A stretch of DNA of 64,000 nt from a virus (IMGVR_UViG_3300010160_000047:1789-65788), one strand, 5' to 3'; positions 10,234 to 58,722 are shown, numbered from the stretch's first letter. Translations and numbers: made by a program. Notes: a model not told the origin generated them from the letters alone.

Positions 10234-10252
10234 AAATAAAAACATTTTTTTA

Positions 10253-10492: not shown

Positions 10493-10556
10493 TTTTTAAT
10501 TGTTTTTTAGCTAAAAATAAATTAACGTAGTAAAAATAATCTAATTTTAGATACAA

Positions 10557-11563: not shown

Positions 11564-11578
11564 AATTAAAAAATAAAA

Positions 11579-12463
11579 ATGGCAAAATTAATAGTACCAT
11601 CTAATCCACAAACATTACAAAATAATAATACAACTCCTCAAATAACAACTAATCCACAATTAGTTACAACACCTCAAGTTAATACATTACCAAGTCAACC
11701 AATTAAAAATACAGTACCAGTAATAAAGGGAGCAATACTTGAATCTTTTGATAAAGGCAAAAAAAAATCAACACAACCTGTAAAAGAGTATGATTTTGGA
11801 AATGAAATGATAAATTTATCAAATAAGCTTTTACCATATGATAATCAAACTGCACCTAATTTAATAAAACAAGTTTCTACTGAAACAGGAATTAAGCCGA
11901 GTCTTTTATATTCTTCAGCTTATATAGAAGGTATGAATAAAGCAGCAGCAAATCCAGATGATATTTCTGAAGCTTATGCAACACTATCAGAAAAAGATCA
12001 AACTGATTTTCCTGTAGATGGTTTTTATAATTATGGATTAGATACATTTGGCACTAGATTTAATGATCTTAAAAAATATTTGCCAGTCGGATTTGAAAAT
12101 AGATTTAAAACATTTCAAGGTAAAAATGAAAAGGGAGGCACTATATTAACAGCTGCTTTTAAAACAAATAAAGATGCGCTTATTGCGAAATCCGCAATGT
12201 TAAAATCAGAACAAGATAATGTTTTAAATTATGCTAAAGCAAATGGTATAAATTTAGATGAAGATGCTAAAGATTATTTTACTATGGCTTCATACAATAG
12301 TGGATTTGGTAATGCTAGAAAAATGATTGATGAATATAAAAAATCACCTAATAAACAAAGTTTTATTAATAATGGAGAAACTAGTTTAAAAGGGGTGCAT
12401 ACGAATGTATCAAGAAGAATGAAATTAAGACAAACTGCTACAAATTTATTAAATAAAAGTTAA
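11579..12463 (+). CDS. lytic transglycosylase / lysozyme-like protein
   Basis: ETGIKPSLLYSSAYIEG (candidate catalytic E), YGLDTFG, MASYNSGFGN. Thr/Pro/Gln-rich N-terminal linker. Confidence 0.65.
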   Translation: MAKLIVPSNPQTLQNNNTTPQITTNPQLVTTPQVNTLPSQPIKNTVPVIKGAILESFDKGKKKSTQPVKEYDFGNEMINLSNKLLPYDNQTAPNLIKQVSTETGIKPSLLYSSAYIEGMNKAAANPDDISEAYATLSEKDQTDFPVDGFYNYGLDTFGTRFNDLKKYLPVGFENRFKTFQGKNEKGGTILTAAFKTNKDALIAKSAMLKSEQDNVLNYAKANGINLDEDAKDYFTMASYNSGFGNARKMIDEYKKSPNKQSFINNGETSLKGVHTNVSRRMKLRQTATNLLNKS

Positions 12464-12527
12464 TGAAATAAAATAAATCTTTTAAAAGAAATCTATTCCA
12501 TATATTTAATTATAAAAAATTAAAATT

Positions 12528-13049
12528 ATGAAATACTTAATTATTTTGTTTTTATTATCTTTTACTTTTAATAGTTATGATAAAATAAATTATGATCAAT
12601 CTTTAAAAGAATCTTATCAAATTTCATATAATAGAACTAAGAAATTGAAATGGGCAGATTTTAAAAAAGTAAATAATAATTCAAAAACAGCAGCACTTAC
12701 AAGCAGCGGTATAACATATATTACAAATCAATATAAAAATTATAATGAAGTTTTAGTTTCTTGTGTTTTTGATAAAAATGAATCTTATTGCAATGGAAAT
12801 AATAATACAGATTATATATTAAATCATGAACAAAAACATTTTGATATAACTTATATTTTTTGCAATAAATTTATAAATAGATTAAAGGAACAAAATAATT
12901 TGAATGGAGATAAGATTTTATTTATTTACAATCAAATTATAAATGAATGGGAAGAATATCAAAAAAAATATGATTTAGAAACTAATAATTCTATAAACAA
13001 AGTTGAACAAGAAAGATGGAATAAAATTGTAGAATTACAATTAAATTAA
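12528..13049 (+). CDS. DUF922-like zincin metalloprotease with signal peptide
   Basis: MKYLIILFLLSFTF signal, KLKWADFK, ILNHEQKHFDI (HExxH), YDLETN. Confidence 0.8.
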   Translation: MKYLIILFLLSFTFNSYDKINYDQSLKESYQISYNRTKKLKWADFKKVNNNSKTAALTSSGITYITNQYKNYNEVLVSCVFDKNESYCNGNNNTDYILNHEQKHFDITYIFCNKFINRLKEQNNLNGDKILFIYNQIINEWEEYQKKYDLETNNSINKVEQERWNKIVELQLN

Positions 13050-13050
13050 T

Positions 13051-13395
13051 ATGGCAGAAAATATTGAAGATTTAAAAAAAAGATTAGAATTATATGAACA
13101 AAATGGCCCAGCTAAATTATATTATTCTTTAAATCGTAAGGCAAATGAAATGGCAGATATTCTAAATAATACAAGTCTTAGAACACTTGATTTATCTGAT
13201 GCAAAAGATAAAACATTTGAAAGAATGAAAATTATTTGGAATGATGCTACAAGTATTACTACTGCTATAACTGGATTAGCAATGGCTATTGGTATTACTG
13301 GGGATGAGGAAAAAGATGTGAAAAGAAATCAGATAATAACAACCCCAGAAAGCATAGCAAATCAATTAGGAGATAATAAAGTTCAAGATGTATAA
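13051..13395 (+). CDS. putative terminase small subunit
   Basis: Helical 114-aa ORF overlapping the TerL start. Positional inference only. Confidence 0.45.
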   Translation: MAENIEDLKKRLELYEQNGPAKLYYSLNRKANEMADILNNTSLRTLDLSDAKDKTFERMKIIWNDATSITTAITGLAMAIGITGDEEKDVKRNQIITTPESIANQLGDNKVQDV

Positions 13396-15460
13396 TAAAA
13401 TAGAAGGCGGAACTTCAATAGATATTCAAGGTTTAATTTGTAACATACCCCCACAAGGGTATGTTTTTAATTTAGCTACGAAAAAACTAGAAGCAAGAAC
13501 AATTCATAAGCGTTCAGATAATCCCAAAGATCAATATTGGGAAAGGATACCATTGCCCGGATGGTATAAAGATGTTATGAAAAAAGAGGATGCTTATGAG
13601 AAAAAAAGAAAAGAAGATGATGCTCCTTTTTATGATGAGAAATTAGAAGAATACAAAAGACAAGAATGGGACAGAAGGTTGAATGGATATTGGTTTATGA
13701 ATAATGGTAAACCAACGTATTTAACTGGATCTCATTATATGTATTTGCAATGGTTTCAGATTGATATTGGATACCCTAGATTTAGACAACCAGACTTAGA
13801 ATATTTTTACTTTTTAAAGTATGTAGAAGAAGACCCAGAATGTATGGGTATGCTTGAAATTACTAAACGAAGATTTGGTAAAACATTTAGAGGTGGTATG
13901 TTCTTGTATGATTACATTACTCGTACAAGAATGACCAATGGTGGTATCCAAAGTAAAACAGGTAATGATGCTAAGAAAGTATTTGCCAAAGCAGTAATTT
14001 CTCCATTCAAAAAATTACCTAGATTCTTTCGCCCAGAATATGATATGAGCTTGGGTGTTACTCCTAAATCAGAGATTAGATTCCAACAAACAAACGTAAG
14101 AGGTAAGAAAGCTGAAGACAACATTGATAAAGAAGAATTAGGATCAATGATTGACTGGGGAAGTGCTGATACCATTCATTATGATGGACAGAAATTACAT
14201 AGATATTTTTCGGATGAGTGGGCAAAAACAACAGAGGTAAACATATACGATAGACATGAGGTTATTCGTTATTGTTTGCTAGATGATGAAGGTAAAATTA
14301 TTGGTAAAGCCCTTTATAGTTCTACAGTTGAAAAATTGGATACAGAAAGAGATGGAATCCAACAAGCGGCAAGAACTCTTTGGAATGATAGTGATCAATT
14401 AAATAAACAGGGCAATGGAAGAACATCTAGCGGACTTTATAGATTTTTTATGACCGCAGATAGAGCTAAGAACTTTGATTTTTTTGGATTCCCTGATGTA
14501 GATAAAACAATAAAAGAAATATTAGCAGATAGAGAAACAGTTAAACATAATATTCGTTCTCTTACTAAAAGGATTAAAAAAGAAGCTAGAACTATTGAAG
14601 AAGCATTTAGTGAAGATGGGGATGATTGTATTTTTAATTCTCAAAATATAAATGAGCAACTTGCATATTTAAGACAGAATCCTGTATCTAGATTTAGATA
14701 TTTAAATTTTTACAGAGATTTGGATACGCAAAAAGTAAAATGGCGAGATGTTGATCCAAATAAAACTGAATTATATTGGAAAGTATTAATGCTTCCACCA
14801 GCAGGGCAAGACAACAAATATGTTATGAATAACAATCAAAGAATGCCAACTAGAAATAGTATAGGTGTTATTGGTGTGGATGGTTATTCAAACACTCAAG
14901 GTGGTAAAGAATATGGATCAAAATTATCTGGATGGTATTTTATCAAATATGATATAAATGACCCAGAAAATACTGGTACATTTGGAGGTCATATTTATGG
15001 CAGACCAAATGAAAAAGATGATATGTATAATCAAATACTTCTTTGTTCTGAATATATGAGTTTCCCTACTTATTTTGAGTTTGTATCAGATGATTATTAT
15101 ACTTATTTTAAAAACAGAGGCCGATTGGCATATTTAGGAAGATTCCCTAAAAACTCTATAGACCCAATTAAATTTAAAAAAGACAAAGTAGATAGACATT
15201 TTGGTTTTCCAACAACAGAATTTGCACTTACTAAACAAAATGATGCAATGACAACATTCATAGAACATCATTGTAATAAAATATTTTACGAAGATTTGCT
15301 TGAAGATTTATTAAAATTTAGACCATATAAACGTACACCTTCAGATAGAACGGTGAGTGCTATGATTACGCTTGTTTCTAGCTTAGAACCAATACCTGTA
15401 CCGCAAGTACCAAAAACACCATTAATAAAAATTTTTACTAATCAAAAAACCGCAGTTTAA
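13388..15460 (+). CDS. terL: terminase large subunit (crAss-like)
   Basis: Walker A KRRFGKT, Walker B YFSDEWAK, SSTVE coupling motif, RNase H-like IGVDGY and DRTVSA. Confidence 0.93.
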   Translation: MYNKIEGGTSIDIQGLICNIPPQGYVFNLATKKLEARTIHKRSDNPKDQYWERIPLPGWYKDVMKKEDAYEKKRKEDDAPFYDEKLEEYKRQEWDRRLNGYWFMNNGKPTYLTGSHYMYLQWFQIDIGYPRFRQPDLEYFYFLKYVEEDPECMGMLEITKRRFGKTFRGGMFLYDYITRTRMTNGGIQSKTGNDAKKVFAKAVISPFKKLPRFFRPEYDMSLGVTPKSEIRFQQTNVRGKKAEDNIDKEELGSMIDWGSADTIHYDGQKLHRYFSDEWAKTTEVNIYDRHEVIRYCLLDDEGKIIGKALYSSTVEKLDTERDGIQQAARTLWNDSDQLNKQGNGRTSSGLYRFFMTADRAKNFDFFGFPDVDKTIKEILADRETVKHNIRSLTKRIKKEARTIEEAFSEDGDDCIFNSQNINEQLAYLRQNPVSRFRYLNFYRDLDTQKVKWRDVDPNKTELYWKVLMLPPAGQDNKYVMNNNQRMPTRNSIGVIGVDGYSNTQGGKEYGSKLSGWYFIKYDINDPENTGTFGGHIYGRPNEKDDMYNQILLCSEYMSFPTYFEFVSDDYYTYFKNRGRLAYLGRFPKNSIDPIKFKKDKVDRHFGFPTTEFALTKQNDAMTTFIEHHCNKIFYEDLLEDLLKFRPYKRTPSDRTVSAMITLVSSLEPIPVPQVPKTPLIKIFTNQKTAV

Positions 15461-32120: not shown

Positions 32121-32561
32121 ATGGTAACAATAAAAAAAATAAGTGTAAATGAATTGCCGAAATTGATTTCTTTAGTTTATGAAGGAGATAATGATTTATT
32201 TAAAAATTTACCCGGAATGCGGTCTAATTATATGACTAAAGTAAATGGTGAATTATTGAATATTTATCAAATGGCAGAAAATAGAAGATTGTGTTATTAT
32301 AAAGTAATTTATCAAAAAAAACCTATTGGTTATTTTGTTATTTTTGAAAATACATTATATTCATTTGGAATAAATATCAAGTATAGAAAAAAAGATATAT
32401 TACTAAGTTGGTGGCAACAATTAAAAAAGACTTTAAAAAAAGGGTTCAATTGTTATTTAGATGAACAAAACGAAAGGGCAATAAGTTTTTTAGAAAAAAA
32501 CAATATGAAAGTTGTAGAAAAAGATGAAGAGCATAAAATAGTAACTTTGATTAATTGTTAG
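32121..32561 (+). CDS. GNAT-family acetyltransferase-like protein
   Basis: KPIGYFV, SFGINIKYRK, NERAISFLEKNNM. Position between nozzle and ejection genes. Confidence 0.75.
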   Translation: MVTIKKISVNELPKLISLVYEGDNDLFKNLPGMRSNYMTKVNGELLNIYQMAENRRLCYYKVIYQKKPIGYFVIFENTLYSFGINIKYRKKDILLSWWQQLKKTLKKGFNCYLDEQNERAISFLEKNNMKVVEKDEEHKIVTLINC

Positions 32562-33034
32562 ATATGGATGAGATAATTGAAAATAAAACTAAGAATGAAA
32601 GAATTGATGAATTAGAGGCCACTATGGTTGAAAATTTTCCTTTAATAAATTGTCCATTAAATCATAGATTTACAGAGGGGATGTATGTAAGAGAAATATT
32701 TATGCCAGCAGGTTCTTTGATTACAAGCAAAATACATAAAACACAGCACCAATATTTTATATTAAAAGGTGCTGTATCGGTATGGATTGATGAAGGAGAA
32801 GAGGCTTATTTAGAAGCTCCATATATTGGAATTACAGAACCAGGGACAAGGAGAGTTCTTTATGTTTGGGATGATTGCATTTGGGCTACTTCTCATCCAA
32901 ATCCTGACAATGAAAATTTGGAACAAATAGAAGAAAGAATAATAGAAAAACATGACAATACTTTATTACCGCAAGAAGTAAAAGATAAATTAAAAGAATT
33001 ACTATTGTTAAACAATAAAACTATAAACATATGA
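32555..33034 (+). CDS. cupin-like phage protein
   Basis: HRFTEGMYVREIFMPAG..SKIHKTQH...LKG..PGTRR. Confidence 0.75.
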   Translation: MLDMDEIIENKTKNERIDELEATMVENFPLINCPLNHRFTEGMYVREIFMPAGSLITSKIHKTQHQYFILKGAVSVWIDEGEEAYLEAPYIGITEPGTRRVLYVWDDCIWATSHPNPDNENLEQIEERIIEKHDNTLLPQEVKDKLKELLLLNNKTINI

Positions 33035-47711: not shown

Positions 47712-47783
47712 AAATAATACGCATTTAAAAGATTTTAATATATTTTTGACAATAATAATTATATTTGCTAAACCTCTAAAAAA

Positions 47784-48302
47784 ATGCCTTACTCACAAAA
47801 TTTTACAGTAGCGCAAACGCCAATTAATCCTGCCTACATAATAGTTACAGATACTAGTACTGGATCTGATCCATTAATAATAGGTAGAACTATAACTATT
47901 AAAGATTCTTTTGGTAATTATTTAGTACCAGAAGGAATAACTACAAATTATATAGATTGGCCATTGGTAGATATTTCAATCTCATTAAATATTTTAACGC
48001 AAGATGTTGCAGCCAATGTATTAGTAGAATGGTTGTATGCTGGGCCTGTAATTCAATATTCACTTAATAGAAACTATTGTTTTTCTCAATACAATAAACA
48101 ATTCCTTTATTATTTAATTCAATTACAAGCACATAATTATGCTATAATTCAAGACAATAATTATTGGGGAAATGTAGGTATTTTTTGGACTAATATTACA
48201 GGCGCAATAAACGCAGTTGAAATAGGGGATGATATAGCAGCTTCACAAGCTTGTCTTTCAAGAGCAACATTTATGGCACAAAATCAATCAATTTATTTTT
48301 AA
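47784..48302 (+). CDS. putative tail-associated structural protein
   Basis: PKD/Ig-like N-terminus (IIVTDTSTGSD). First gene after a TATATTTG -7 box at 47760-47767. Confidence 0.6.
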   Translation: MPYSQNFTVAQTPINPAYIIVTDTSTGSDPLIIGRTITIKDSFGNYLVPEGITTNYIDWPLVDISISLNILTQDVAANVLVEWLYAGPVIQYSLNRNYCFSQYNKQFLYYLIQLQAHNYAIIQDNNYWGNVGIFWTNITGAINAVEIGDDIAASQACLSRATFMAQNQSIYF

Positions 48303-48303
48303 G

Positions 48304-48837
48304 ATGTCACAATTAACGATACCGGAAATAATTGAGTTAGGGGATATAAGTGTCCCCTTTTCTGCTAATTATCAAGCCAAGGGAAGTTTGTATGGGACTA
48401 GGTTAGCATTTTCTGCACCACAAACCATAGCGTTAGTTACCGATGCTTTAAGATGGCATTGGGATGATTTTCCCGGAGATAGTACGTTAAGAGGTGTAGC
48501 TAATTATTTATATTGGTTATGCGGTAAGTTTGCATTAGAAGGGCAATATGTTATTTCTGGCACAGGTGGCGGTACAGTTATACCAATTAATCCAATTGTA
48601 GCTCCTACCCCAATAGAGTTTGAAGTTACAGGATCTTCATTTATGATAAATGGTCAAAGTGTACAAGCGATACCATCTTTTGTTGGATACAATTTATTAT
48701 TTATTAGAAATAACATTCCTCAATCCATAGTTAATATGGGAGCATCTTATTTCTCATGGGATAAAAATACAGGAACATTTACTTGTTATCCAGCAGCAGT
48801 TTCGGGAGAGTTATTTCAATTATATCCATACATTTAA
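48304..48837 (+). CDS. putative tail-associated structural protein
   Basis: 177-aa ORF, helical N-terminus plus small beta C-domain, preceding the fibre gene. Confidence 0.6.
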   Translation: MSQLTIPEIIELGDISVPFSANYQAKGSLYGTRLAFSAPQTIALVTDALRWHWDDFPGDSTLRGVANYLYWLCGKFALEGQYVISGTGGGTVIPINPIVAPTPIEFEVTGSSFMINGQSVQAIPSFVGYNLLFIRNNIPQSIVNMGASYFSWDKNTGTFTCYPAAVSGELFQLYPYI

Positions 48838-48841
48838 AATT

Positions 48842-51800
48842 ATGAAAAAAATATTTTTACTACTATCTTTTTTTTTGATTTGTGCGATCTCGTATTCTCA
48901 GCAATACCCAGTCACGCAAAATTTAGGTGCGCCTAAAACATTAGTTGTAACCAAAGGCGGAATCCAAGTTGATAGTTCTCTTATACTTCCTCATTTTCCC
49001 GATACAGCATCTGCTAATATATCTACTTTTATAAAAAAATATCCAGGGACATTAATAAGAGTAGGGGATAGTCTTTATGTAAGAAGTGCAGATACTACTA
49101 CTTGGTTGCCATTGAATAGTGGAAATGTAAACATCATAAATAATTTCTTTACTTATAATACCCGATTGATTTCGGGAAGTGCTGTTTGGGATTCTTTATT
49201 AATATATAGTGTTACTAAGTGTATTTATTATATTAATGGCAATTTATACGGTTCGGCAGCTACCAATGTAACACTAGCAGCTGCTGATTCTTCCAATCCA
49301 AGGATAGATGTTATTTATTGCGATACTTCGGGAAATGTTGGGGTAATAACAGGTGTCTCCTCACCCGATCCTGTAAAGCCTGTAGTTAATCCTCTATCAC
49401 AAATAGAATTAACTCACATAGATGTAAATGCCCAAGCTACAACACCAGCAGGCATCAGTAAAAAGATAATCTACAATGAGAACACAGGGCTTCCAGGGGA
49501 GTGGACTACATCAAGTACAAGTGGTGCAATTACATTTAACTACGCAACCAATCCATATAAAGATTTAGTTTCTGCATTTTTTGATGGAGGAGCTGCACTT
49601 AATCAAAGTGCTATATTTACCAATAACGCAAATGTTAACGCAGACACCCTTAGTCTTTTGTCTATGTACTTGAGGTTAAATTCAGCTGTAGCGTCTATTT
49701 CTAAAACACTATTGGCTATACAGCTTTTTAAATCGGGAGTTTTGGTCTCAACTACAATTCAAGTGGAATCTGGTCGTTACGGATACAATGAAAATATTTT
49801 ATCTGCATATCAGCAGTTAGCAATACCCTTCTCCGACTTTACTTTTAGAAACCCCACGGACAAAACCTTTGACCAAATAAGAATAATTGCATACGATGTT
49901 GTTAAGTTGGGATTCCAAATAGACTACATAACAGCTCAAGTTGGAGGCAATCCTCCTCCTGTGACTAGCAACTATTGGTCTTTGTCTGGGAACGACATCT
50001 CGGCTTCCCCAACATCTGTATTAGGAACAACAAGTAAGAATCCTTTAAGTATAGTTACATTAGGGGTAGAGGCTATAAATATAGCCGAAGATGGAATAAT
50101 AAGACTACCTAGAATATTTAGCAATACAGACACTACAACTTACAAGCCATTGGCTATAAATACAAACGATGGGGAGCTAGTGCGTATGGACTCATGGATT
50201 GGAGGTGGAACAGGAAGCGTTACAGCAGTTACTGGGGTAGCTCCTGTGTTTTCAAGTGGGGGAACAACTCCCTCAATATCCATGTCTATAGCCTCAACTA
50301 GCACAAATGGTTACCTAACACAAGGCGACTGGAACATCTTTAACAACAAACTAAATCCTGCTGACACCATTTCCCTGTCAACCAGAGTAAATAATGCCTA
50401 CAATAGCGTAACCAGACTGTCAGATACAAGTTTCTATTTAAAGAAACCTAATGATGTTAAGGATACAATTTTGTTGGGGAACTCAATAGTTTACGCAGAG
50501 AATCCAATAATGGCAAGGGTGTCTAATGACTCTAACATTATCTACTTTAACCCAGATACTGCTAATGTATGGAGAGGTGGAAGTGGAACTATACCAACAT
50601 TACAACAAGTATTAGATAATAATCATAATTTAGTTAATAACAATAATTTTCAAGGAACACTTGCTGGTACTGCCCAAACAGGAAATAATGTAAATGCTTT
50701 TGGTAATAGCGCAGGTGAGTTTAATACAGGTATTTGGGTAAATGCTTTTGGTAATGCTGCGGCTGAAACAAATGTTGGTAATCAAGTTAATGCCTTTGGA
50801 ATTGCAGCAGGACAAGACAACTCAGGTTCAGATGTAAATTTTCTAGGAAACTTAGCAGGAAATGCTAATTCTGGAGGGTCTGTAAATGGATTAGGATTAT
50901 ATGCAGCAAAAGATAATACAGGAAATAATGTAAATGCTTTTGGATATAATACTGGAGTTGGAAATACTGCAAATGATATAAATCTTTTCGGTAAAAACGC
51001 ATCAGCTACAGCTAACAATCAAATAGTATATACAACAGATGATGGTACATATCAAACTAGATTACAACAAAATAATACACAAGATAATTTAATAAACATT
51101 CCTAACGAAAGTGGAACATTATTATTAGATGCTCCTGCTGATGGTAATTTATATGGAAGACAAAATAATGCTTGGGCAATAGTAAGTGGCGGTAGCGGAA
51201 CGGTAACAAGCATATCTCAAGGATATGGCATCACTAATTCCCCCAACCCAATAATAGCAACAGGAACTATAACAGTAGATACAGCAACATTGTCTGGTAA
51301 GTATGTTAGAATAACAGATACAGCCAATATGCTTAGTCCATACCCAATAGGAAGTGGTGCTGCTACTACAGTTGCTTTTTGGGATGGCACACGTTCGTTA
51401 ACAAACAACTCACAAATAGCTATTGATAATTCTTCACCAACAAGTCCATCTTTACAAATTAGAGCAAGTACGGTAACTACAAGGTCATTTATGAATCCAA
51501 CTTATAGTGGTGTACAATACAATGCTACTAATTATGCAATAAATAATATCTCCACAACTACACCTTTATTTATAAATCACGAAGAAATAATCAATAGAGA
51601 AAGTAGATTGTACTCTAATTCCTTGCAATTTTCTAATTTATCCACAAGTGGTTATGTTACATTGAGTCCCCCAACATCATTTAATAACCGAAACTACACC
51701 CTGCCAGATAGCAGCGGAACTATAGCCTTAAATGAATATACAGTTAACAGCATTTCCCGAACACCAGGAAAAGATTCTATTATATTTTATGTAGGCTCTA

Positions 51801-52627
51801 CAAGATATGCTATCAAAGATAGTGTGGGAACTGCAACAGGATTTGTTCCATATACAGGAGCAACTACAGATGTTGATTTAGGAACTCATATATTGTCTGC
51901 ACAAGGATTAAGAGTTACTGGTACAAATGGAGCTGGAGATTTACATTTAAGACACCAAGCAACTGATGCAACTGCTACAGGTCAGTCTACTGCATTGTTC
52001 GCTGATGCTAATGGAGATTTGAAGTACAAAAATGCAGGTAATTTTTACACAACTTTAAAAACTTCGGGCAATGCAGCCGACGCTATTTATACTTATCCAT
52101 CAGCAACAACAACATTGATAGGCGCAGCAGATACATCTGTATTGCAAAGAAAGAACATTGCTGCTTATTCATTACAGGCTAACAATACGGCATCAGCAGC
52201 AAATGTAACTACACAAACATACAGAGATGTTGCAGAGGCAGCTATTTCTGGAACAATTACATGGACAAGTGGAACTGCTCCAACAACATTAATATCGGCA
52301 AACTATCAATGGCAACAAATAGGTAAGGTCGTAACTGTGCAAGTGAGTTTATTATATACGAATCCGAGTACTCTTATTTCTGCATTTACATTTCCTTTGC
52401 CTTCAGATATGCCATTGCCAGTAACACCTACAGGGTGGAGTGCCGCAAGTAGTTATTTATTTACGGGTTCAGCAAGTAGTCATGCTACAACATCATCATT
52501 ATCTACGAGTGCTTTAGCAAGTTTTATACGAAGAGATGCGGCAAATACGGGATACGAAATAGGTGGAGGAGGGGCATTATCTTCAGCAAGAGGGTGGAAA
52601 ATTAATTTAACATATAAAGCGCAATAA
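48842..52627 (+). CDS. tail-fibre-like protein with N-terminal signal peptide
   Basis: MKKIFLLLSFFLICAISYS/QQ. Fibre motifs PTLQQVLD, APADGNLYGRQNNAW, GTVTSI, FVPYTGATTDVDLG, and about seven 15-aa VNAFG repeats. Confidence 0.8.
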   Translation: MKKIFLLLSFFLICAISYSQQYPVTQNLGAPKTLVVTKGGIQVDSSLILPHFPDTASANISTFIKKYPGTLIRVGDSLYVRSADTTTWLPLNSGNVNIINNFFTYNTRLISGSAVWDSLLIYSVTKCIYYINGNLYGSAATNVTLAAADSSNPRIDVIYCDTSGNVGVITGVSSPDPVKPVVNPLSQIELTHIDVNAQATTPAGISKKIIYNENTGLPGEWTTSSTSGAITFNYATNPYKDLVSAFFDGGAALNQSAIFTNNANVNADTLSLLSMYLRLNSAVASISKTLLAIQLFKSGVLVSTTIQVESGRYGYNENILSAYQQLAIPFSDFTFRNPTDKTFDQIRIIAYDVVKLGFQIDYITAQVGGNPPPVTSNYWSLSGNDISASPTSVLGTTSKNPLSIVTLGVEAINIAEDGIIRLPRIFSNTDTTTYKPLAINTNDGELVRMDSWIGGGTGSVTAVTGVAPVFSSGGTTPSISMSIASTSTNGYLTQGDWNIFNNKLNPADTISLSTRVNNAYNSVTRLSDTSFYLKKPNDVKDTILLGNSIVYAENPIMARVSNDSNIIYFNPDTANVWRGGSGTIPTLQQVLDNNHNLVNNNNFQGTLAGTAQTGNNVNAFGNSAGEFNTGIWVNAFGNAAAETNVGNQVNAFGIAAGQDNSGSDVNFLGNLAGNANSGGSVNGLGLYAAKDNTGNNVNAFGYNTGVGNTANDINLFGKNASATANNQIVYTTDDGTYQTRLQQNNTQDNLINIPNESGTLLLDAPADGNLYGRQNNAWAIVSGGSGTVTSISQGYGITNSPNPIIATGTITVDTATLSGKYVRITDTANMLSPYPIGSGAATTVAFWDGTRSLTNNSQIAIDNSSPTSPSLQIRASTVTTRSFMNPTYSGVQYNATNYAINNISTTTPLFINHEEIINRESRLYSNSLQFSNLSTSGYVTLSPPTSFNNRNYTLPDSSGTIALNEYTVNSISRTPGKDSIIFYVGSTRYAIKDSVGTATGFVPYTGATTDVDLGTHILSAQGLRVTGTNGAGDLHLRHQATDATATGQSTALFADANGDLKYKNAGNFYTTLKTSGNAADAIYTYPSATTTLIGAADTSVLQRKNIAAYSLQANNTASAANVTTQTYRDVAEAAISGTITWTSGTAPTTLISANYQWQQIGKVVTVQVSLLYTNPSTLISAFTFPLPSDMPLPVTPTGWSAASSYLFTGSASSHATTSSLSTSALASFIRRDAANTGYEIGGGGALSSARGWKINLTYKAQ

Positions 52628-52803
52628 TGAAGCACATCAGACAAATTAATAGTGTTGGAACTAATACTTATACAGTAGTAGTTACTGAAGGATGGATGTT
52701 GCCATTAGAGGATTTTCCTGCTGTAGTAGAGCATCCCGAATCATTTGAAATATCAGAGGAAGAAATTCCCGAACAACATCAATACCTTATTTACCAATCA
52801 TGA
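52627..52803 (+). CDS. 58-aa acidic protein (possible fibre assembly chaperone)
   Basis: Not in track. MKHIRQINSVGTNTY...EHPESFEISEEEIPE; TAATG and ATGA coupling on both sides. Confidence 0.75.
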   Translation: MKHIRQINSVGTNTYTVVVTEGWMLPLEDFPAVVEHPESFEISEEEIPEQHQYLIYQS

Positions 52804-55800
52804 GGAAACTTTTATTAATTATTCTTTTTCTTCCTTTGTTTGCTTCTGCAAGAAAGTTTTATGTTTCTTCAAGTACGGGAAATGATAGTTATACATTTCT
52901 ACAGGCGCAAAATCCAGCTACACCTTGGAAATCACTAAAGACTATTACCGCCTTTGGTTCATCACTTAATAATGGATTTCAGCAATTTACAACATATCCA
53001 AACAAGGCTGCTGCTGGAGATACATTTGTATTTAAAAGAGGAGATTTATTTGATAACGGAGAAACTTATTATTCATCATTTTTTTGGATAAACTATATTC
53101 CAGATGGATATTCGTGTCCAAGTGGAACTGCATTAAATCCTATTGTATTCACTAATTATGGTGACCCTAATCTTGCATTACCTAATTTCTTATATCCAAC
53201 TGCATCAATTGCTACTAATGAAAATAGAAATGTATTTGAATTAGGCGGTGTCACAAATATAATTATAGATGGATTACAATTCAATGATAACAGAGGCTCA
53301 TTTAGTATCCAAGATAAAGTTAACCCTGCACCAACAAGAAGTGGGATATGGTTGGGAACAAATACCTTCGGAACTTGGATTGATACAACAATAATAGAAC
53401 GAAAAGTAAAAGATTGTATAGTAAGAAATTGTGTATTTAATAATATATCTTTTGCTATTGGCTCTTTAGCTGGCATTAGGTGCGAAATTTATAATAATAC
53501 AATAACTAACTTAAAAGCCTGTGTTGATACTATTGGTGTAAATGATGTTGGAGCTGGTGCTTTTGAAGGACTTAATGGATATTTTAATAAGATACATCAT
53601 AACTATGTAAGAGGTGCTTGGGCTAAGTCTGGGAGAATATCTTCATCTAATGGATTACTAGGTGTTGGTTGTGATATATTCAATCTTAAATATTCATCAA
53701 TAAGCTATAATACCTTTGTTGATTGTTCGGGAGCTTATGAGATTGGGAACATTGATTTTGCAGATGCTAATGCTGGTGCGCAGTATGATACATTCGCATA
53801 TAATAAAGTAATTAATTGTGGGCAGTTAGGCTATATACATGGAGAATCTAATGACCCATTTGGCGGCAAGGTAAGAAATATATTTAATTGGAATAATGTT
53901 ATTATCAATAATAATACATCACGAATAAATGGTCCTAATTTTGGGTATGACTTATATAATGATGGACAGTCATTTAGAGGGAATTCATTGGGACAATATG
54001 CGTGGTGGTTTTTCAGAAGTCCAATTAAATGTCCAGATAATGCATTACCTGAATCAAATCAAACATGGAGTAATCCAATTAATCCATCTTGGTGCAATTG
54101 GAATAGTCATAAATTTAATATACAATACTCATCAGATAATTTTGTTGGAAATCCAGATACAATAGTAGATATAAGAAATAATATTTTTTATTGTACTACT
54201 GGAGACCAAATAATATATGATGCATCCAGAACTAAACAAAAGCATAGCAATAATATTTATTATATTAAGGGTGGGTTTTTATTTCCGACATCGCTGGGTG
54301 GAACTTTAGGCACTAACGAAAGAATATTTACAACAAAGTTTTTTAAAGACACATCAGCAGCGCTACCAGAGAATTGGGATTTAAGAATAGATTCAGCTAC
54401 AAGTCTTGCAGTTACTGGGGGCGCATCAATTCCAGGATTTTCTACAGATTTTGCAGGTAACCCAATAATAGGCATTCGTACTATGGGTATCTATCAATTT
54501 GCATCTGGCGCAATTACTCCATCAGTAACCACACTTGCAACCACATCCATATCATATACAACTGCTCTTATTGGGGGCAATATAACTTCTGATGGTGGCG
54601 CACCAATATTAAGGAGTGGATTAATGTACAGCACTATACCGTTAGGCACAGATACTCTTTCGGGGGTTAAGGTTATTAATCCTGTCTTGGGAACTGGCGT
54701 GTATACATCACCGATAACAGGGCTTACTTCTTCAACAACTTATTATGTAAGAGCGTTTGCAGTTAACAACATAGGAATAACATGGGGCGCTAATGTTTCG
54801 TTCATTACACTAACGCCTCCAACATTAGCAACAGTTATCACTTCCCCAGCAACATCAATAACTATATCTGCTGCTACACTTGGGGGTAATGTTACCTTAG
54901 ATGGTGGTGCTTCAGTTACAAGAAGAGGAGTAGTCTACAGCACATCAGTTATATCTGACACTAATAGTATTACAGGAGGGGGGAGATTGGCTAGTGGCAC
55001 AGGCACAGGATTATATACCATCCCAGTAACAGGGTTAGCAATTAATACGCTATATCACGTTAGGGCATTTGTAGTTAATTCCGTAGGCGTTTACCTAGCA
55101 CCAGAGGTTACGTTTACAACACTAAATATCCCCACACTTACAACACTAGCAGCAACATCTATTACATCTAGTACGGCATCTAGTGGCGGCAACATTAGTT
55201 CTAATGGAGGCTCTCCTGTAATAAGAAGAGGATTGGTATATAATACTATACCAATATCAGATACAGGAATCAATCCAAAAGTAATAGATTTGAGTGGGGG
55301 AACAGGCAGTTACACATCATTGTTGTCTTCCCTAACACCCAATACAACTTATTATATATTAGCCTTTGCTGTAAATGCTAATGGTGTTGCCTATGGGAAT
55401 GTTCTAACATTTAACACGATAATTGCTTCCATACCTACGGTAACATGGGCAGGCGTTAATCTTGGTGTTGTAACCTCGGTAGTTAATGGGAATGTAGCAT
55501 CAGAAGGCAGCGCACCAGTTACAAGAAGAGGATTTATTTATAGTCTAACTACTCCATTGCCAGCAGATACAAATAGTGGAATTAAGGTCATAGCGACAGG
55601 AGGAGGATTGGGTGCTTTTCAAGCTACATTAACAGGGCTAACGGCTCTTACAACTTACTATATAAGACCATTTGCGGTAAATTCGGTAGGGGTTAGTTTT
55701 GGTGCGGAAACATCATTTAGAACGCAAGGAGCTTCATCAGTTACTACCACTCCCCCAACAGCCATAACAGCAACATCTGCAACCACAGGAGGAGTTATAA

Positions 55801-57029
55801 CTGACTATGGTAGTACTTTTGTAGTTAAAAGACAATTAATATACAGCACATCGCCTATTGTAGACACTAATAGTACGGTTGGCGGTGGTACATTAAGCTA
55901 TACTCCCAATATAACAGCATATCCTATTCTATTAACTTCACTACTTCCCAACACCACTTATTATATAGCAGCGTTTGTAGTTAACGCCCTTAATTTTTTA
56001 ACAATTGGGAATCGCCTAAGTTTTACTACACTACAGTTATTATCCATACCAACGGTAACAACCAACGCAGTTACATCCATTACTTTAACATCAGCAAATG
56101 CTGGAGGCAATGTTACATTTGACGGCAATAGTGCAGTAACAAGAAGAGGTATATTGTACAGTACATCGCCACTTGGGGATACAACTACAGGCACTAAGAT
56201 TATTAGTGGAACTGCTGGAACTGGTAGTTATACTATTCCCTTGAGTTCCCTAACATCTAATACAATATATTACACTAGGGCATTTGCAGTTAATTCTATA
56301 GGAGTTGCTTATGGGGATAATGTTGCCTTTGTTACACCATTACCATTATCTACACCTTCAATAGTAACGATTCCTCCATCATCAATAGGGATAACAACTG
56401 CATTAAGTGGGGGCAACATTACATTTGATGGCAACAGCGCAGTTACACGAAGAGGACTAATCTACAGCACATCCGCAATAACCGACACAAATAGCGTTAC
56501 TGGAGGTGGTAGAATAATCAGCGGCACTATAGGTATAGGCACTTATACTTCTTCCCTAACAGGACTAACAGGCAATACTCTATATTACATAGCTGCATTT
56601 GCTGTTAATTCCATAGGGGTAACAATAGCCAACCAAATAACATTTACAACTCTGCCAGCTCCCACAGCACCCTTAGTAACAACCCTACCTGCTACCTTTA
56701 TAACTATTAGCACAGCAGTAATAGGGGGCAACGTAACATCTGATGGTAATTCTACAGTAACACGCAGGGGTCTAGTATACAGCACAGTTTCTCCAATAAG
56801 CGACACGAACAGCATAGTAGGGGGCAATCTAATTATATCGGGTAGTGGCTTGGGGACATTTAACGCATCCTTGTCTTCCCTAACATCTAGCACAACTTAC
56901 TATGTAAAGGCATTTGCTCTTAACTCAGTAGGAATTACTTATGGCAATGAAGTTAACTTTGCAACACCAGTTTTTACACCAAGGTTTAGTTTTTTAAGGA
57001 TCAAGCGCCGGTATGTCCAAAAGCCTTAG
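52800..57029 (+). CDS. secreted-type beta-helix protein with eight FN3-like repeats
   Basis: MRKLLLIILFLPLFASA/RKFYVSSSTGND, PWKSL, GDTFVFKRG (pectin-lyase-like beta-helix), then 8 repeats of GGNxTxDG..RRG..YYxRAFAVNxxG (~54515-56966). Confidence 0.85.
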   Translation: MRKLLLIILFLPLFASARKFYVSSSTGNDSYTFLQAQNPATPWKSLKTITAFGSSLNNGFQQFTTYPNKAAAGDTFVFKRGDLFDNGETYYSSFFWINYIPDGYSCPSGTALNPIVFTNYGDPNLALPNFLYPTASIATNENRNVFELGGVTNIIIDGLQFNDNRGSFSIQDKVNPAPTRSGIWLGTNTFGTWIDTTIIERKVKDCIVRNCVFNNISFAIGSLAGIRCEIYNNTITNLKACVDTIGVNDVGAGAFEGLNGYFNKIHHNYVRGAWAKSGRISSSNGLLGVGCDIFNLKYSSISYNTFVDCSGAYEIGNIDFADANAGAQYDTFAYNKVINCGQLGYIHGESNDPFGGKVRNIFNWNNVIINNNTSRINGPNFGYDLYNDGQSFRGNSLGQYAWWFFRSPIKCPDNALPESNQTWSNPINPSWCNWNSHKFNIQYSSDNFVGNPDTIVDIRNNIFYCTTGDQIIYDASRTKQKHSNNIYYIKGGFLFPTSLGGTLGTNERIFTTKFFKDTSAALPENWDLRIDSATSLAVTGGASIPGFSTDFAGNPIIGIRTMGIYQFASGAITPSVTTLATTSISYTTALIGGNITSDGGAPILRSGLMYSTIPLGTDTLSGVKVINPVLGTGVYTSPITGLTSSTTYYVRAFAVNNIGITWGANVSFITLTPPTLATVITSPATSITISAATLGGNVTLDGGASVTRRGVVYSTSVISDTNSITGGGRLASGTGTGLYTIPVTGLAINTLYHVRAFVVNSVGVYLAPEVTFTTLNIPTLTTLAATSITSSTASSGGNISSNGGSPVIRRGLVYNTIPISDTGINPKVIDLSGGTGSYTSLLSSLTPNTTYYILAFAVNANGVAYGNVLTFNTIIASIPTVTWAGVNLGVVTSVVNGNVASEGSAPVTRRGFIYSLTTPLPADTNSGIKVIATGGGLGAFQATLTGLTALTTYYIRPFAVNSVGVSFGAETSFRTQGASSVTTTPPTAITATSATTGGVITDYGSTFVVKRQLIYSTSPIVDTNSTVGGGTLSYTPNITAYPILLTSLLPNTTYYIAAFVVNALNFLTIGNRLSFTTLQLLSIPTVTTNAVTSITLTSANAGGNVTFDGNSAVTRRGILYSTSPLGDTTTGTKIISGTAGTGSYTIPLSSLTSNTIYYTRAFAVNSIGVAYGDNVAFVTPLPLSTPSIVTIPPSSIGITTALSGGNITFDGNSAVTRRGLIYSTSAITDTNSVTGGGRIISGTIGIGTYTSSLTGLTGNTLYYIAAFAVNSIGVTIANQITFTTLPAPTAPLVTTLPATFITISTAVIGGNVTSDGNSTVTRRGLVYSTVSPISDTNSIVGGNLIISGSGLGTFNASLSSLTSSTTYYVKAFALNSVGITYGNEVNFATPVFTPRFSFLRIKRRYVQKP

Positions 57030-57156
57030 TAATATTATTACGATAAAATATTTTATTTAATGTGTTGATTTTATAGTTAATTTTGAAGAATGAAATTAAT
57101 AAGGCATAATATTTGCATTATTATTTGTGTACCACCATTTATCCTACTTTAAAACT

Positions 57157-57345
57157 ATGACTATGAAAACCATTCTTAATAATTCAGTTGATTGGGTAAG
57201 CATTAAACTTAATGCAATTTGCCTTATTGGATTGATTGCCACTTCTAATTTACTTAGTATATTTACATTAATTGCAACAGTTACAACTATCTTGTACAAT
57301 GCTATTCGTATTTACAAAGAAATAAAAGAAAATAAATCTAAATAA
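57157..57345 (+). CDS. small membrane protein (holin/antiholin-like)
   Basis: Hydrophobic core with basic C-terminus. Start trimmed to ATG 57157. Confidence 0.6.
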   Translation: MTMKTILNNSVDWVSIKLNAICLIGLIATSNLLSIFTLIATVTTILYNAIRIYKEIKENKSK

Positions 57346-57346
57346 T

Positions 57347-57595
57347 ATGAAATCACCTTTTTTAACTTTAAATTCAAGGGACTTTATAAAAGGTCTATTT
57401 GTAGCAGTACTTACTGCGATAGTTACATTTATGTACACTTCATTACAAAATGGATCATTAACTTTTGATTGGAAAGCTATTGGGATGGCGGCCTTGTCTT
57501 CGGCATTGGCTTACATTATGAAAAATCTGTTAACCAATTCTAGCGATCAGCTATTGGCAACAGAAAAAAAAATGTCAAGCGATGAAAGCATATAA
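57347..57595 (+). CDS. holin
   Basis: Two TM helices (FIKGLFVAVLTAIV; WKAIGMAALSSALAYIMKNL) in the lysis cassette. Confidence 0.75.
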   Translation: MKSPFLTLNSRDFIKGLFVAVLTAIVTFMYTSLQNGSLTFDWKAIGMAALSSALAYIMKNLLTNSSDQLLATEKKMSSDESI

Positions 57596-58178
57596 CCTGC
57601 TAGGTGTTTTTTTGTTAAGTATTTTATTCATATCCAACTCTTGCAATATAGAGAAAAGAGTAGAAAAACAACAAGAGGCATTTGATAACATTGGTAAAAA
57701 ATGGTTGGGGCTTCATCCATGTGCCAATGATAGCAGTTATATATATCTACCGGGCAAGAGGGATTCCATCCCATTTTTAATTCCTGTATTAGTAAAGGAT
57801 ACGATGGAAATTAAAAAGCAGATAGACAGTCTTAATATTTATTTGGATAGAAAATATAATGACCAAAAAATAGATTGCAAAAATCAAGTTCGTGAATCAT
57901 ATAATGCTGGATACCAAAAAGCCGAATTAGTTTGGAAAGATAAATTATCTAAAATAAAAATCCCACTTCCAGTAATAGATACCCTAAAAATAACCTTAAA
58001 AGACAAGCAAGCCATTAAATTACTTGTTAGTGATTTAACTGATACCCAAAAAAAACTAACTGATACTCAAATAAATTTAGAAAAATTTAAAGGCAAAAAA
58101 GATAAATGGTTTTTATTGTTTATCCTAGCTTGTGCTTTATTGCTTACTAGCATTTTTTTTAATATCAAAAAGCTATGA
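57582..58178 (+). CDS. putative unimolecular spanin
   Basis: N-terminal lipoprotein signal (LFISNSC) plus C-terminal TM helix (WFLLFILACALLLTSIFF), located between holin and endolysin. Confidence 0.7.
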   Translation: MKAYNLLGVFLLSILFISNSCNIEKRVEKQQEAFDNIGKKWLGLHPCANDSSYIYLPGKRDSIPFLIPVLVKDTMEIKKQIDSLNIYLDRKYNDQKIDCKNQVRESYNAGYQKAELVWKDKLSKIKIPLPVIDTLKITLKDKQAIKLLVSDLTDTQKKLTDTQINLEKFKGKKDKWFLLFILACALLLTSIFFNIKKL

Positions 58179-58630
58179 AAGATAAAATAAGTATTCTACG
58201 TTTAGAGTATTTACATCCTAAAGTCAGATTAGATTTTAGTAATTTTATAGAAGAGGCAGAAAATAAATTAAATATAGTATTAAGAATTTCCCAGGGATTG
58301 AGAACAATGGATGAACAGCAAGCCCTTTATGATATAGGCAGAAAAATCTCTGGCCCAATAGTTACCAATGCCAAAGCAGGAAGCAGTTATCATAATTATG
58401 GTTTAGCTATTGATCTTGTTGTTTTAGTAAATGATAAAATAGATTGGAATTATGATATGGGCAAACTACTGCCTTATTCCATCAAACAACAAATCACATG
58501 GGGTGGTAGTTGGCGTAAATTTAAAGACAAACCTCACTTTGAAAAAACATTCGGAATTAACTGGCGTGATATGTTAGCCAAGTATAAAAAAAAAGATTTT
58601 ATACCCGGTACAAAATACATAACTTTATAA
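58175..58630 (+). CDS. endolysin, peptidase M15 (L-Ala-D-Glu type)
   Basis: GLRTMDEQQALY, VTNAKAGSSYHNYGLAID, WGGSW..DKPHFE. Confidence 0.93.
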   Translation: MKDKISILRLEYLHPKVRLDFSNFIEEAENKLNIVLRISQGLRTMDEQQALYDIGRKISGPIVTNAKAGSSYHNYGLAIDLVVLVNDKIDWNYDMGKLLPYSIKQQITWGGSWRKFKDKPHFEKTFGINWRDMLAKYKKKDFIPGTKYITL

Positions 58631-58655: not shown

Positions 58656-58722
58656 AACCCTGCTTATTCTTAGGTGGGGTTTTTTAATTAATAAAGCAAC
58701 CTGTATTAGGCTGCTTTATTTT
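58656..58722. terminator. paired terminators between convergent late and early regions
   Basis: AACCCTGCTTA..TAGGTGGGGTT-Tn and AATAAAGCAACCT-GTATT-AGGCTGCTTTATT hairpins. Confidence 0.75.

Follow-up and report, generated by a model that had tools for sequence, protein, structure and literature searches.

Conserved Sec-type leaders on a fibre-like and a tailspike-like giant protein of a Bacteroidota phage: candidate exported appendages

Tailed-phage particles, fibres included, assemble in the cytoplasm as a rule. Classical fibres (e.g. T5, T7) and tailspikes (HK620, P22) carry no leader and are assembled in this compartment. Host-type export signals on phage genes are also in print. The Q-rule describes a glutamine at position +1 of Bacteroidota signal peptides (Bochtler et al. 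2018, PMC5837995); five genes of unknown function that follow it have been reported in Porphyromonas phages (PMC10367356), and 'Cryophage' carries phage-encoded type IX cargo genes (PMC7468147). Like the proteins described below, these are phage products with host-type export signals, but they are presented there as genes of unknown function or as host-surface-altering enzymes rather than as tail fibres, and the term 'tail fiber' does not occur in the main text of PMC10367356. Among cellular proteins, the MAT fibres of Bdellovibrio bacteriovorus combine a signal peptide, a conserved beta-rich N-domain of ~130 aa, a mosaic trimeric build and variable tips (Caulton et al. 2024, PMC10769870), although they belong to a predatory proteobacterium and are not phage genes.

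Among cultured phages, the Bacteroidota podophage phi18:3 of Cellulophaga (Pachyviridae, KC821620.1), whose terminase is about 27% identical to that of the present phage, encodes three consecutive large proteins (gp085, gp086 and gp087) with classical leaders and a glutamine at +1. Immediately after them come small membrane proteins and a lysin, an order like that of the present locus. In the record all three leader-bearing proteins carry the label 'structural protein, experimental MS/MS proteomics', a detection that could reflect co-purification, and their leaders go unmentioned. Literature searches returned no paper describing export leaders on tail fibres, in line with an earlier note on this DNA that knew of no characterised system of this kind; the related print consists of the Porphyromonas-phage and 'Cryophage' papers.

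The locus lies in a window of 64,000 nucleotides (IMGVR_UViG_3300010160_000047:1789-65788) from the 65,788-bp genome of an uncultured short-tailed phage of Bacteroidota (Table 1). Two large genes, A and B, come after a 4199-aa giant gene and two small genes; behind them lie genes for two small membrane proteins, for a lipoprotein with a membrane helix at its C-terminus and for an M15 endolysin. They thus occupy the receptor-binding position before the lysis genes that had been claimed for them, where classical fibres are also found. The membrane proteins would act as holins and the lipoprotein as a spanin-like factor; the 82-aa membrane protein has relatives of 56-64% identity directly 3' of the B-like gene in six related contigs. 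The 172-aa protein at the head of the module has relatives of 35-37% identity by tblastn (L021/L027, L022, L058) and no Pfam or PHROG match, and the 177-aa protein has neither a Pfam/PHROG family match nor a tblastn relative in the compared loci. The translational coupling of A and B put forward earlier holds in an indirect form, through a 58-aa ORF whose ATG overlaps the stop of A (TAATG) and whose own stop overlaps the ATG of B (ATGA); a direct link between the two giants falls away. This ORF is conserved at 48-66% identity in L021/L027, L025 and L058, and in two related contigs (L024, L045) the A-like and B-like genes adjoin with nothing between them.

Table 1. Features of the A/B module and the adjoining lysis genes, with positions counted from the first letter of the window
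Feature	Coordinates	Strand	Basis or remark
172-aa leaderless protein, module head	47784..48302	+	relatives adjoin A-like genes
177-aa leaderless protein	48304..48837	+	stop 4 nt before ATG of A
ORF A, 1261-aa mosaic tail-fibre-like pre-protein	48842..52627	+	
A leader, aa 1-19	48842..48898	+	Q20 invariant; leader in 140 of the 150 best relatives
A conserved N-terminal domain, aa 20-110, invariant D54-T55	48899..49171	+	
A beta-sandwich, carbohydrate-binding-module-like region, aa 105-370	49154..49951	+	AF2, Foldseek
A trimer-forming tail-fibre motif region, aa 455-548	50204..50485	+	
A C-terminal domain, aa 1093-1261, candidate distal tip	52118..52624	+	
58-aa acidic leaderless ORF	52627..52803	+	between A and B
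ORF B, 1409-aa pre-protein: leader, beta-helix, 8 Fn3-like repeats, basic tail	52800..57029	+	
B leader, aa 1-17	52800..52850	+	-1 residue in homologues; Met-starting variants
B right-handed parallel beta-helix, aa 18-560, glycanase/tailspike-like	52851..54479	+	AF2, Foldseek
B 8 Fn3-like repeats, ~103 aa each	54522..56975	+	Pfam fn3-type matches
B short basic C-terminal tail, ends RIKRRYVQKP	56976..57026	+	conserved in phage forms
Two small membrane proteins, 72 + 82 aa	57127..57595	+	holin-like by position
198-aa lipoprotein with C-terminal membrane helix, unimolecular-spanin-like	57582..58178	+	N-terminus and C-terminus
M15 peptidase endolysin, without leader	58175..58630	+	PF13539 3e-12; phrog_2649 endolysin 3e-30
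Terminator-like hairpin, end of late/lysis unit	58656..58681	+	11-pair stem, then T run; called by consensus match alone

Protein A starts MKKIFLLLSFFLICAISYSQQYP, with an MKK n-region, an uncharged hydrophobic core of 13 residues and S-Y-S before a predicted signal peptidase I cut after S19, which would expose Gln20. Protein B starts MRKLLLIILFLPLFASARKFY, with an MRK n-region, an 11-residue uncharged hydrophobic core and A-S-A before a predicted cut after A17, between ASA and RKFY, with arginine at +1. The basic n-region, the core of ~10-15 residues and the small residues at -3 and -1 that signal peptidase I substrates display are present in both proteins; the glutamine of the Q-rule is present in A and not in B. 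The calls rest on these classical rules and on conservation, and agree with the earlier attribution of Sec signal peptides to both giants and of a Q-rule start to A. When a crude leader filter was run over the 65,788-bp genome (all six-frame ORFs, minimum 50 aa), five ORFs passed, and A, B and the lysis-cassette lipoprotein account for three of them. Translation from an internal start had been named as a point that would count against the signals. No in-frame ATG, GTG or TTG occurs between codons 12 and 89 of A (77 codons past the leader) or between codons 13 and 185 of B (172 codons past it), so that a leaderless full-length isoform begun at a canonical internal start is not available, and the short in-frame stretch from the upstream stop to the ATG holds no start codon in either gene.

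Both the A-like and the B-like gene carry a leader in all six syntenic phage contigs. Among relatives of the N-terminal domain of A, 140 of the best 150 representatives pass the filter, the other 10 being mostly truncated gene calls; glutamine stands at +1 in 7/7 A-like loci (the truncated L022 counted), and Q20 is invariant in alignment A4. Of the 35 viral loci that contain a B-like gene, 33 encode it with a leader, and the two leaderless variants (L046, L057) place their Met exactly at the predicted cut boundary. The mature start is the same in 89 of 112 homologues of B, with A, S or G at -1 in 88 of these 89, and the +1 residue is arginine in most relatives, bacterial type IX cargo included. 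Leaderless homologues, which the earlier note had counted against its own proposal, are therefore rare among these relatives. While the leader sequence drifts, the n-h-c layout, the -3/-1 rule and the +1 glutamine of the A family stay, a pattern to be expected only under continued cleavage by signal peptidase I. Judged from sequence, the leaders of A and B are genuine. They are not general in the wider clade: the fibres of MW202828.1 and of Flavobacterium phage elemoF are leaderless and begin with N-terminal motifs of their own, but such fibres stay beside the M15 lysin, at the same spot as A and B.

Protein A has a mosaic build, in which a conserved N-domain is followed by swapped modules and by a motif of ordinary leaderless fibres. 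The N-domain has 375 cluster representatives at E<=1e-3 and starts at residue 18-27 in most of the best 150. The AF2 model of the carbohydrate-binding-module-like region has a pLDDT of about 80-95, and its top Foldseek matches are CBM8, CBM11 and other beta-sandwich CBMs. Over about 45-55 aa, the trimer motif (aa 455-505) shares 54-76% identity with many leaderless tail fibres, some of which carry PF13884, and the C-terminal domain is 36-74% identical to the C-termini of relatives P0002-P0019. A homotrimer model scored an ipSAE of 0.82 against 0.00 for the best control, a pass that may reflect likeness to solved fibres. Of 30 solved pairs, 20 reach the score mark, as does 1 of 23 single chains; three runs of the model shared at least 67% of contacts, with a partner pLDDT of at least 66. 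Trimer motif and mosaic build, both found in classical fibres, sustain the earlier description of A as fibre-like. The likeness of A to the MAT fibres is one of layout; the C-terminal domains of the MAT fibre Bd2133 rank 32 among its fold matches, weakly (TM 0.11 on query).

The general O-glycosylation motif of Bacteroidota, D-(S/T)-(A/I/L/V/M/T), is modified in the periplasm (PMC11611037). Protein A contains 13 such motifs against 5.4 expected, a number reached by 4 of 1000 shuffles, and 28 leader-bearing relatives contain 535 against 164.8 expected (3.25-fold), whereas 26 leaderless fibres with the same trimer motif contain 47 against 91.5 (0.51-fold). Five control motifs gave ratios of 0.43-1.24 in the A family. 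The 198-aa lipoprotein has 4 motifs against 0.5 expected. There is no excess in B (6 against 4.8), the ratio for B-like viral ORFs overall being 2.1-fold, and the other 17 phage proteins tested show no enrichment. The phi18:3 proteins, analogues rather than homologues of A and B (tblastn gave no match at E<=1e-3), differ from A in lacking an excess (1 against 3.0-3.5 expected in each). The motif content suggests that A is probably O-glycosylated by the general system of the host in the periplasm.

The AF2 model of the beta-helix of B has a pTM of 0.81, and Foldseek gave 44 PDB matches at E<=0.001. The top folds are GH136 lacto-N-biosidases (6e-11), PL6 alginate lyases, chondroitinase B and the HK620 tailspike, with a sequence identity of 9-14% to solved enzymes; the domain is predicted to be a tailspike-like glycan enzyme or binder. 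Leader and beta-helix are 55-58% identical over about 570 residues to host type IX cargo. These bacterial relatives, mostly from Chitinophagaceae genomes, share the leader, the beta-helix and the RKFY mature start, but have SprB repeats (PF13573) and the sorting domain PF18962 (listed for 35 of 112 matches by our own count) instead of Fn3-like repeats and a basic tail, and only B is encoded in a phage late operon. With a type IX sorting domain, these relatives must cross via Sec. Eight stretches of B match the N-domain of NF049889 at a spacing of 101-105 aa, and the basic tail occupies the place of the sorting domain. B-like genes also adjoin lysis genes in unrelated phage backbones, in L031 together with several more leader-bearing genes; this placement, with the closeness to host surface proteins, is a counterpoint to a virion role.

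Given genuine conserved leaders, the absence of internal starts and the motif excess in the A family, export is the most economical reading. Export of A and B by Sec is very likely, and their maturation would very probably take place in the periplasm, a compartment separate from the cytoplasm in which particles are assembled. It is proposed that, late in infection, the host Sec translocon would export both pre-proteins and signal peptidase I would remove the leaders, after which the exposed Gln20 of A could cyclise to pyroglutamate. A would be a trimeric fibre with beta-sandwich modules of carbohydrate-binding type, and B a beta-helix of tailspike type that acts on or binds glycans and is carried on a stalk of eight Fn3-like domains; they would fold and trimerise in the periplasm, where A would probably be O-glycosylated. 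DNA-filled particles would arise in the cytoplasm in the usual way and would meet the appendages only once holin, endolysin and spanin have broken down the envelope; docking onto the particles would then follow. P22 tailspikes and T4 fibres can be added to particles in vitro, and we know of no documented mechanism of late docking for such phages. Taken whole, the reading of A and B as exported host-recognition appendages that join virions at lysis has, in our estimate, a nearly even chance of being correct. The earlier note had proposed either this or display on the infected cell. Its leaders and their conservation stand; joining of virions is favoured, in view of the mosaic fibre build of A, the late-operon position and, by analogy, the MS/MS annotation of phi18:3, and display on the cell is the weaker part.

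A smaller but appreciable possibility is that A and B, or B alone, are exported accessory factors that never form part of the particle. They could be a free glycan depolymerase and an adhesin, helping progeny to escape by loosening capsule or matrix; other possible roles are to cover up or break down receptors on the dying cell and the debris it leaves, or to shut out superinfecting phages. The kinship of B with host type IX surface cargo, its likeness to glycoside hydrolases and polysaccharide lyases and the recurrence of B-like genes beside lysis genes in unrelated backbones, with the extra leader-bearing genes of L031, all point this way, as do the printed precedents of Q-rule genes (PMC10367356) and 'Cryophage' type IX cargo (PMC7468147). 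Furthermore, a 159-aa leaderless ORF elsewhere in the tail module (32555-33034) matches PHROG short tail fibre / tail fibre adhesin families (3e-31), so that A and B are not provably the sole fibre candidates. However, A is built like a virion fibre (lineage-conserved N-domain, shuffled distal modules, trimer motif), Pfam, PHROG and other genome searches found no further large fibre or spike gene, phi18:3 has analogous proteins with leaders that its record lists as structural by MS/MS, and related phages have leaderless classical fibres at the same spot.

It is improbable that the leader is kept yet unused for export, with A and B folding and attaching in the cytoplasm and the leader serving as an attachment or oligomerisation element, or being removed by another protease. 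The established rule of cytoplasmic assembly would fit, large fast-folding trimers are in general poor Sec substrates, and the leaderless variants L046 and L057 suggest that the B domain can work without export. Against this, n-h-c layout, -3/-1 rule and +1 glutamine are kept while the sequence drifts, the 3.25-fold excess of a motif modified in the periplasm has no cytoplasmic explanation, and hosts pass far larger members of this family through Sec.

Less probable still is display on the infected cell, in which A and B, once exported by Sec, would be carried to the outer surface by type IX secretion or another route and would re-dress the cell. In favour of this, B has type IX cargo as its bacterial relatives, the end of the basic tail in phage forms resembles the end of the sorting domains of that cargo, and Bdellovibrio exports phage-fibre-like trimers with leader and conserved N-domain (PMC10769870). 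However, Pfam revealed no type A (PF18962/TIGR04183) or type B (TIGR04131) sorting domain in A or B, and NCBIfam none at E<=10 in either whole protein or the last 120 residues, a search in which HMMER filters may hide very weak matches. Neither protein has a conserved lipobox, and the tail of ~10-15 residues compares with sorting domains of ~80 residues that are recognised as a fold (PMC11611037). An annotation artefact, with the true start elsewhere and the hydrophobic N-terminus untranslated, could appeal to the general unreliability of start calls and to nothing further, and is very improbable given the start-free stretches inside and upstream of both genes and the protein-level conservation of the leader in hundreds of relatives.

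The textbook view places the whole assembly of tailed phages in the cytoplasm, and a conserved export route for the receptor-binding parts would depart from that. Returning to the reading of A and B as exported appendages, it is possible, though on balance we hold it slightly more tentatively than the reading for this phage, that a large group of Bacteroidota phages completes its particles outside the cytoplasm, sending receptor-binding fibres and spikes through Sec to be trimmed, capped with pyroglutamate, O-glycosylated in the periplasm and docked only at lysis. If true, docking after lysis would be a new assembly step for tailed phages. The host Sec system, signal peptidase, glutaminyl cyclase and O-glycosylation system would then be phage dependency factors, infectivity would hinge on host genes for secretion and glycosylation, and host-made glycans would coat the very proteins that set host range. 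In practice, Bacteroidota phage fibres produced for study may have to be expressed in the periplasm if they are to fold, and it would be unsafe to take every leader-bearing phage gene for a 'moron' or host-surface factor. The cultured phage phi18:3 offers a system in which the question is directly testable.

The N-termini of A, a large fibre-like protein, and B, a β-helix protein with Fn3-like repeats, both show the succession of basic, hydrophobic and small residues typical of signal peptidase I substrates, with cleavage predicted after S19 and A17, respectively. A crude leader filter applied to all ORFs of the genome of at least 50 aa is passed by five, including A, B and the lipoprotein of the lysis cassette. 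Beyond the leader, no in-frame ATG, GTG or TTG occurs until codon 89 of A and codon 185 of B, and a leaderless full-length form made from a normal start is therefore unavailable. The proposal of the earlier note that both giants carry Sec leaders thus stands, and the start-codon scan led to rejection of an internal leaderless isoform of either protein. A lipoprotein signal on A was also rejected: Cys14 is not conserved and the residues preceding it match no lipobox. In family searches neither A nor B showed a type IX sorting domain.

Positions of the features discussed (window coordinates unless residues are indicated)
Feature	Position	Description
Gene A	48842-52627	1261 aa; N-terminus MKKIFLLLSFFLICAISYSQQYP
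A, leader and N-domain	residues 1-95	56-64% identity to one set of relatives
A, candidate glycosylation site D54-T55	49001-49006	in the N-domain
A, second module	residues 107-452	common to another set of relatives
A, short motif	residues 455-505	54-76% identity to many ordinary leaderless tail fibres, some with endosialidase-chaperone domain PF13884
A, glycine/asparagine-rich repeat block	residues about 600-740
A, C-terminal domain	residues 1093-1261	common to relatives
58-aa ORF	52627-52803	acidic, leaderless; overlaps A stop and B start; 48-66% identity in three related contigs
Gene B	52800-57029	1409 aa; N-terminus MRKLLLIILFLPLFASARKFY
B, basic C-terminal tail	56976-57026	R-x-R-K-K-F/Y-V-x-K or S-R-L-K-F-K-N type
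Spanin-like lipoprotein	57582-58178	198 aa; lipoprotein-type N-terminus and C-terminal membrane helix; resembles a unimolecular spanin
Terminator-like hairpin	58656-58681	strong
TAnnTTTG, two sites	47741-47767	before a 172-aa gene
TAnnTTTG, one site	57078-57085	before the lysis genes
173-aa ORF	12528-13049	leader-like N-terminus
159-aa ORF	32555-33034	leaderless; tail module
Raised G+C	48001-58000	0.35-0.39 over A and B genes

Most homologues retain the leader; the earlier note had named homologues without it as a refutation. B-like genes occur at 35 viral loci, some of them identical copies on different contigs, and 33 of the 35 have a leader. A search with the mature N-domain of A (residues 20-110) against 1.84 billion proteins gave 375 cluster representatives (E≤1e-3), and 140 of the best 150 pass the leader filter; the other ten comprise one borderline leader, one upstream mis-start, seven truncated starts and one leaderless fragment of 85 aa. 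A strict regular expression undercounted these leaders (84/150), and a hydrophobicity filter together with the N-termini themselves was used instead. Among the first 20 columns of a 14-sequence alignment of A only Met1 and Gln20 (+1) are invariant, with retention of the hydrophobic pattern. Six related viral contigs (L021/L027, L024, L025, L038, L045 and L058) preserve the module in the order A-like gene, small ORF (in three of them), B-like gene and gene for an 82-aa membrane protein. Both large genes are leader-bearing in all six, and Gln occupies +1 in 7/7 A-like genes when the truncated copy of L022 is counted. When 185,579 species genomes were scanned with a single peptide pattern from the A N-domain, no relative was found, which is weak evidence of absence.

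The two leaderless viral exceptions (L046, 9992-11659; L057, 878-2797; 28-30% identity) have Met exactly at the predicted mature N-terminus, which supports the predicted cleavage site of B and is evidence that versions without a leader occur. L046 shares synteny with L031, a small phage whose replication module differs and whose B-like copy has a leader; the leader has therefore been gained or lost between related phages. In L031, four consecutive leader-bearing ORFs (804, 173, 152 and 567 aa; 10001-15296) are flanked by small membrane proteins and lysis-like genes. Among 112 protein relatives obtained with B residues 1-580, 89 have an RKFY-type mature start preceded by at least 12 residues, with A, S or G at -1 in 88 of them. 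Leaders are truncated in three, and in the 20 that lack the motif the N-termini mostly indicate a leader followed by a different domain. By our count 35 of the 112 carry the type IX sorting domain PF18962, usually alongside SprB repeats, and one is named a T9SS type A sorting domain protein by NCBI.

A second line of evidence comes from the general O-glycosylation motif of Bacteroidota, described in PMC11611037 as D-(S/T)-(A/I/L/V/M/T). The spanin-like lipoprotein served as internal positive control, and none of 17 other phage proteins tested shows an excess. For 23 of the 28 leader-bearing A relatives the observed count was reached by at most one of 500 shuffles, and five control motifs gave ratios of 0.43-1.24 in the A family. 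The excess would be an independent sign of periplasmic life, glycosylation itself being predicted. In the N-domain of A, D54-T55 is invariant in 14 diverse relatives, and the following residue completes the motif in 11 of the 14, making this pair a candidate conserved glycosylation site.

Occurrence of the O-glycosylation motif; expectations derive from shuffled sequences, and relatives are not independent of one another
Set	Observed	Expected	Shuffles reaching the count, or ratio
A	13	5.4	4/1000
Spanin-like lipoprotein	4	0.5	1/1000
B	6	4.8	343/1000
28 leader-bearing A relatives	535	164.8	3.25-fold
26 leaderless fibres sharing the trimer motif only (2/26 also the 107-368 module), probably from phages of other phyla	47	91.5	0.51-fold
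112 B relatives	846	455.8	1.86-fold
27 leader-bearing viral B-like ORFs	130	62.0	2.1-fold

A is a mosaic of five parts. An AF2 model of residues 1-620 is confident for 105-370 only, and this part of the model matches β-sandwich carbohydrate-binding modules. A trimer model was built from three copies of residues 440-620 (ipSAE 0.82 vs 0.00 for the best control; at least 67% of contacts shared by three runs; partner pLDDT at least 66). In calibration the score mark was reached by 20/30 solved pairs and 1/23 single chains, counts that apply only roughly to the trimer of A since the calibration ran two copies with its own alignments; resemblance to solved fibres may account for the pass. Residues 18-560 of B are predicted to form a right-handed β-helix (pTM 0.81), with fold matches to GH136 lacto-N-biosidases, PL6 alginate lyases, chondroitinase B and the HK620 tailspike. 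The β-helix is succeeded by eight Fn3-like repeats, each of about 103 aa, and these by a short basic tail. This tail is conserved in phage forms of B (also in L024, L025, L027, L038, L045, L031 and L036). The type IX sorting domain occupies the same point in bacterial relatives and its end resembles the final residues of the phage tail, which matches no sorting-domain profile. Phage-record searches gave no match for A and, for B, Fn3-repeat matches alone in four uncultured records. Single-protein locus searches returned only the short shared motif for A and nothing for B, so that alignment queries were required. PDB sequence searches yielded nothing useful, and an ESM Atlas look-up with A residues 1-110 gave a score of about 0.8, no better than chance.

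B is followed by genes for two small membrane proteins, the spanin-like lipoprotein and an M15 endolysin. The translational coupling of A and B described in the earlier note holds in that stops and starts overlap, but it is indirect, passing through the 58-aa ORF, which has no family match and could encode an assembly or export chaperone for one neighbour. Neither sigma-70 promoters (60 vs 56.8 expected) nor, genome-wide, the Bacteroidota-type TAnnTTTG (112 vs 115) exceed chance, and only the positions of the three tabulated TAnnTTTG sites were used, as hints.

Export of A and B is very probable. The best single account, offered tentatively, is that they would pass through Sec late in infection, lose their leaders and fold in the periplasm, A also trimerising and probably being glycosylated, and would dock onto particles built in the cytoplasm once holin, endolysin and spanin merge the compartments. 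In P22 and T4, ready-made spikes or fibres dock onto particles in extracts. A virion role is consistent with the location of both genes in the late operon, the fibre-like build of A and the lack of another large fibre or spike gene in family scans of the genome. Moreover, the relatives MW202828.1 and Flavobacterium phage elemoF hold classical leaderless fibres beside the M15 lysin. In the cultured Cellulophaga podophage phi18:3 (KC821620.1), gp085, gp086 and gp087, encoded directly before membrane proteins and lysin, all start with a leader whose last residue is S or A, with Gln next, and are recorded as 'structural protein; experimental MS/MS proteomics'. However, these three lack homology to A and B and are not enriched in the motif. 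B-like genes also adjoin lysis genes in phages of unrelated backbone, B closely resembles host surface proteins, and the 159-aa ORF matches PHROG families named short tail fibre (3e-31) and tail fibre adhesin (2.5e-23); it has no Pfam match, and its sequence looks like a small β-barrel rather than a fibre. These points would suit exported factors acting outside the virion, a rather unlikely alternative to docking at lysis. That the leaders are present but unused is considerably less probable; the existence of leaderless B-like copies would suit it, and the motif excess speaks against it. Surface display, the other fate suggested in the earlier note, is more doubtful still, since without a sorting domain or a conserved lipobox it would lack a known route. 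An artefact of start annotation is barely credible.

The window takes up 64,000 bases of a phage genome that forms one contig of 65,788. Among its products are a large terminase and a portal (PHROG E 2e-68 and 1e-53), several virion structural proteins and a 4199-aa protein with a RadC/JAB domain; no integrase was found among 10 early-region ORFs scanned. About 340 nt upstream of the terminase gene, and separated from it by a 114-aa ORF, the 173-aa ORF matches DUF922 below threshold (E 2e-4, 22 bits vs a cut-off of 27). The terminase shares only 25-28% identity with its counterparts in 87 phage records (68 Flavobacterium, 15 Cellulophaga, 2 Tenacibaculum, 1 Maribacter, 1 uncultured). Species genomes contain 163 confirmed bacterial relatives of the first domain of B. 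The top four, at 55-58% identity, are three MAG contigs of Chitinophagaceae and a fourth contig with a different bin name, and most of the 77 loci listed are titled Chitinophagaceae, Ferruginibacter or Sediminibacterium. From these relatives we infer a freshwater Chitinophagaceae-type host (Bacteroidota), which differs from the host group of the terminase records. A contig (L065) in a MAG titled actinomycete carries a B-like gene 56% identical to that of the phage; it was probably mis-binned and comes from a Bacteroidota genome or a phage. The G+C content over the A and B genes exceeds that elsewhere in the window (about 0.26-0.34), which may reflect a Gly/Thr/Ser/Ala-rich composition or foreign origin.

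Four published observations come closest. One study took the lack of signal peptides on phage DGR target proteins as support for their phage origin (PMC6199706). Five Q-rule genes of unknown function in Porphyromonas phages were interpreted as modifying the surface (PMC10367356), a cryoconite phage was reported to carry type IX cargo genes (PMC7468147), and phage-like fibres with leaders were described in Bdellovibrio (PMC10769870). None of the papers found in literature searches deals with Sec export of tail fibres in tailed phages, in line with the earlier note, which knew of no characterised system.
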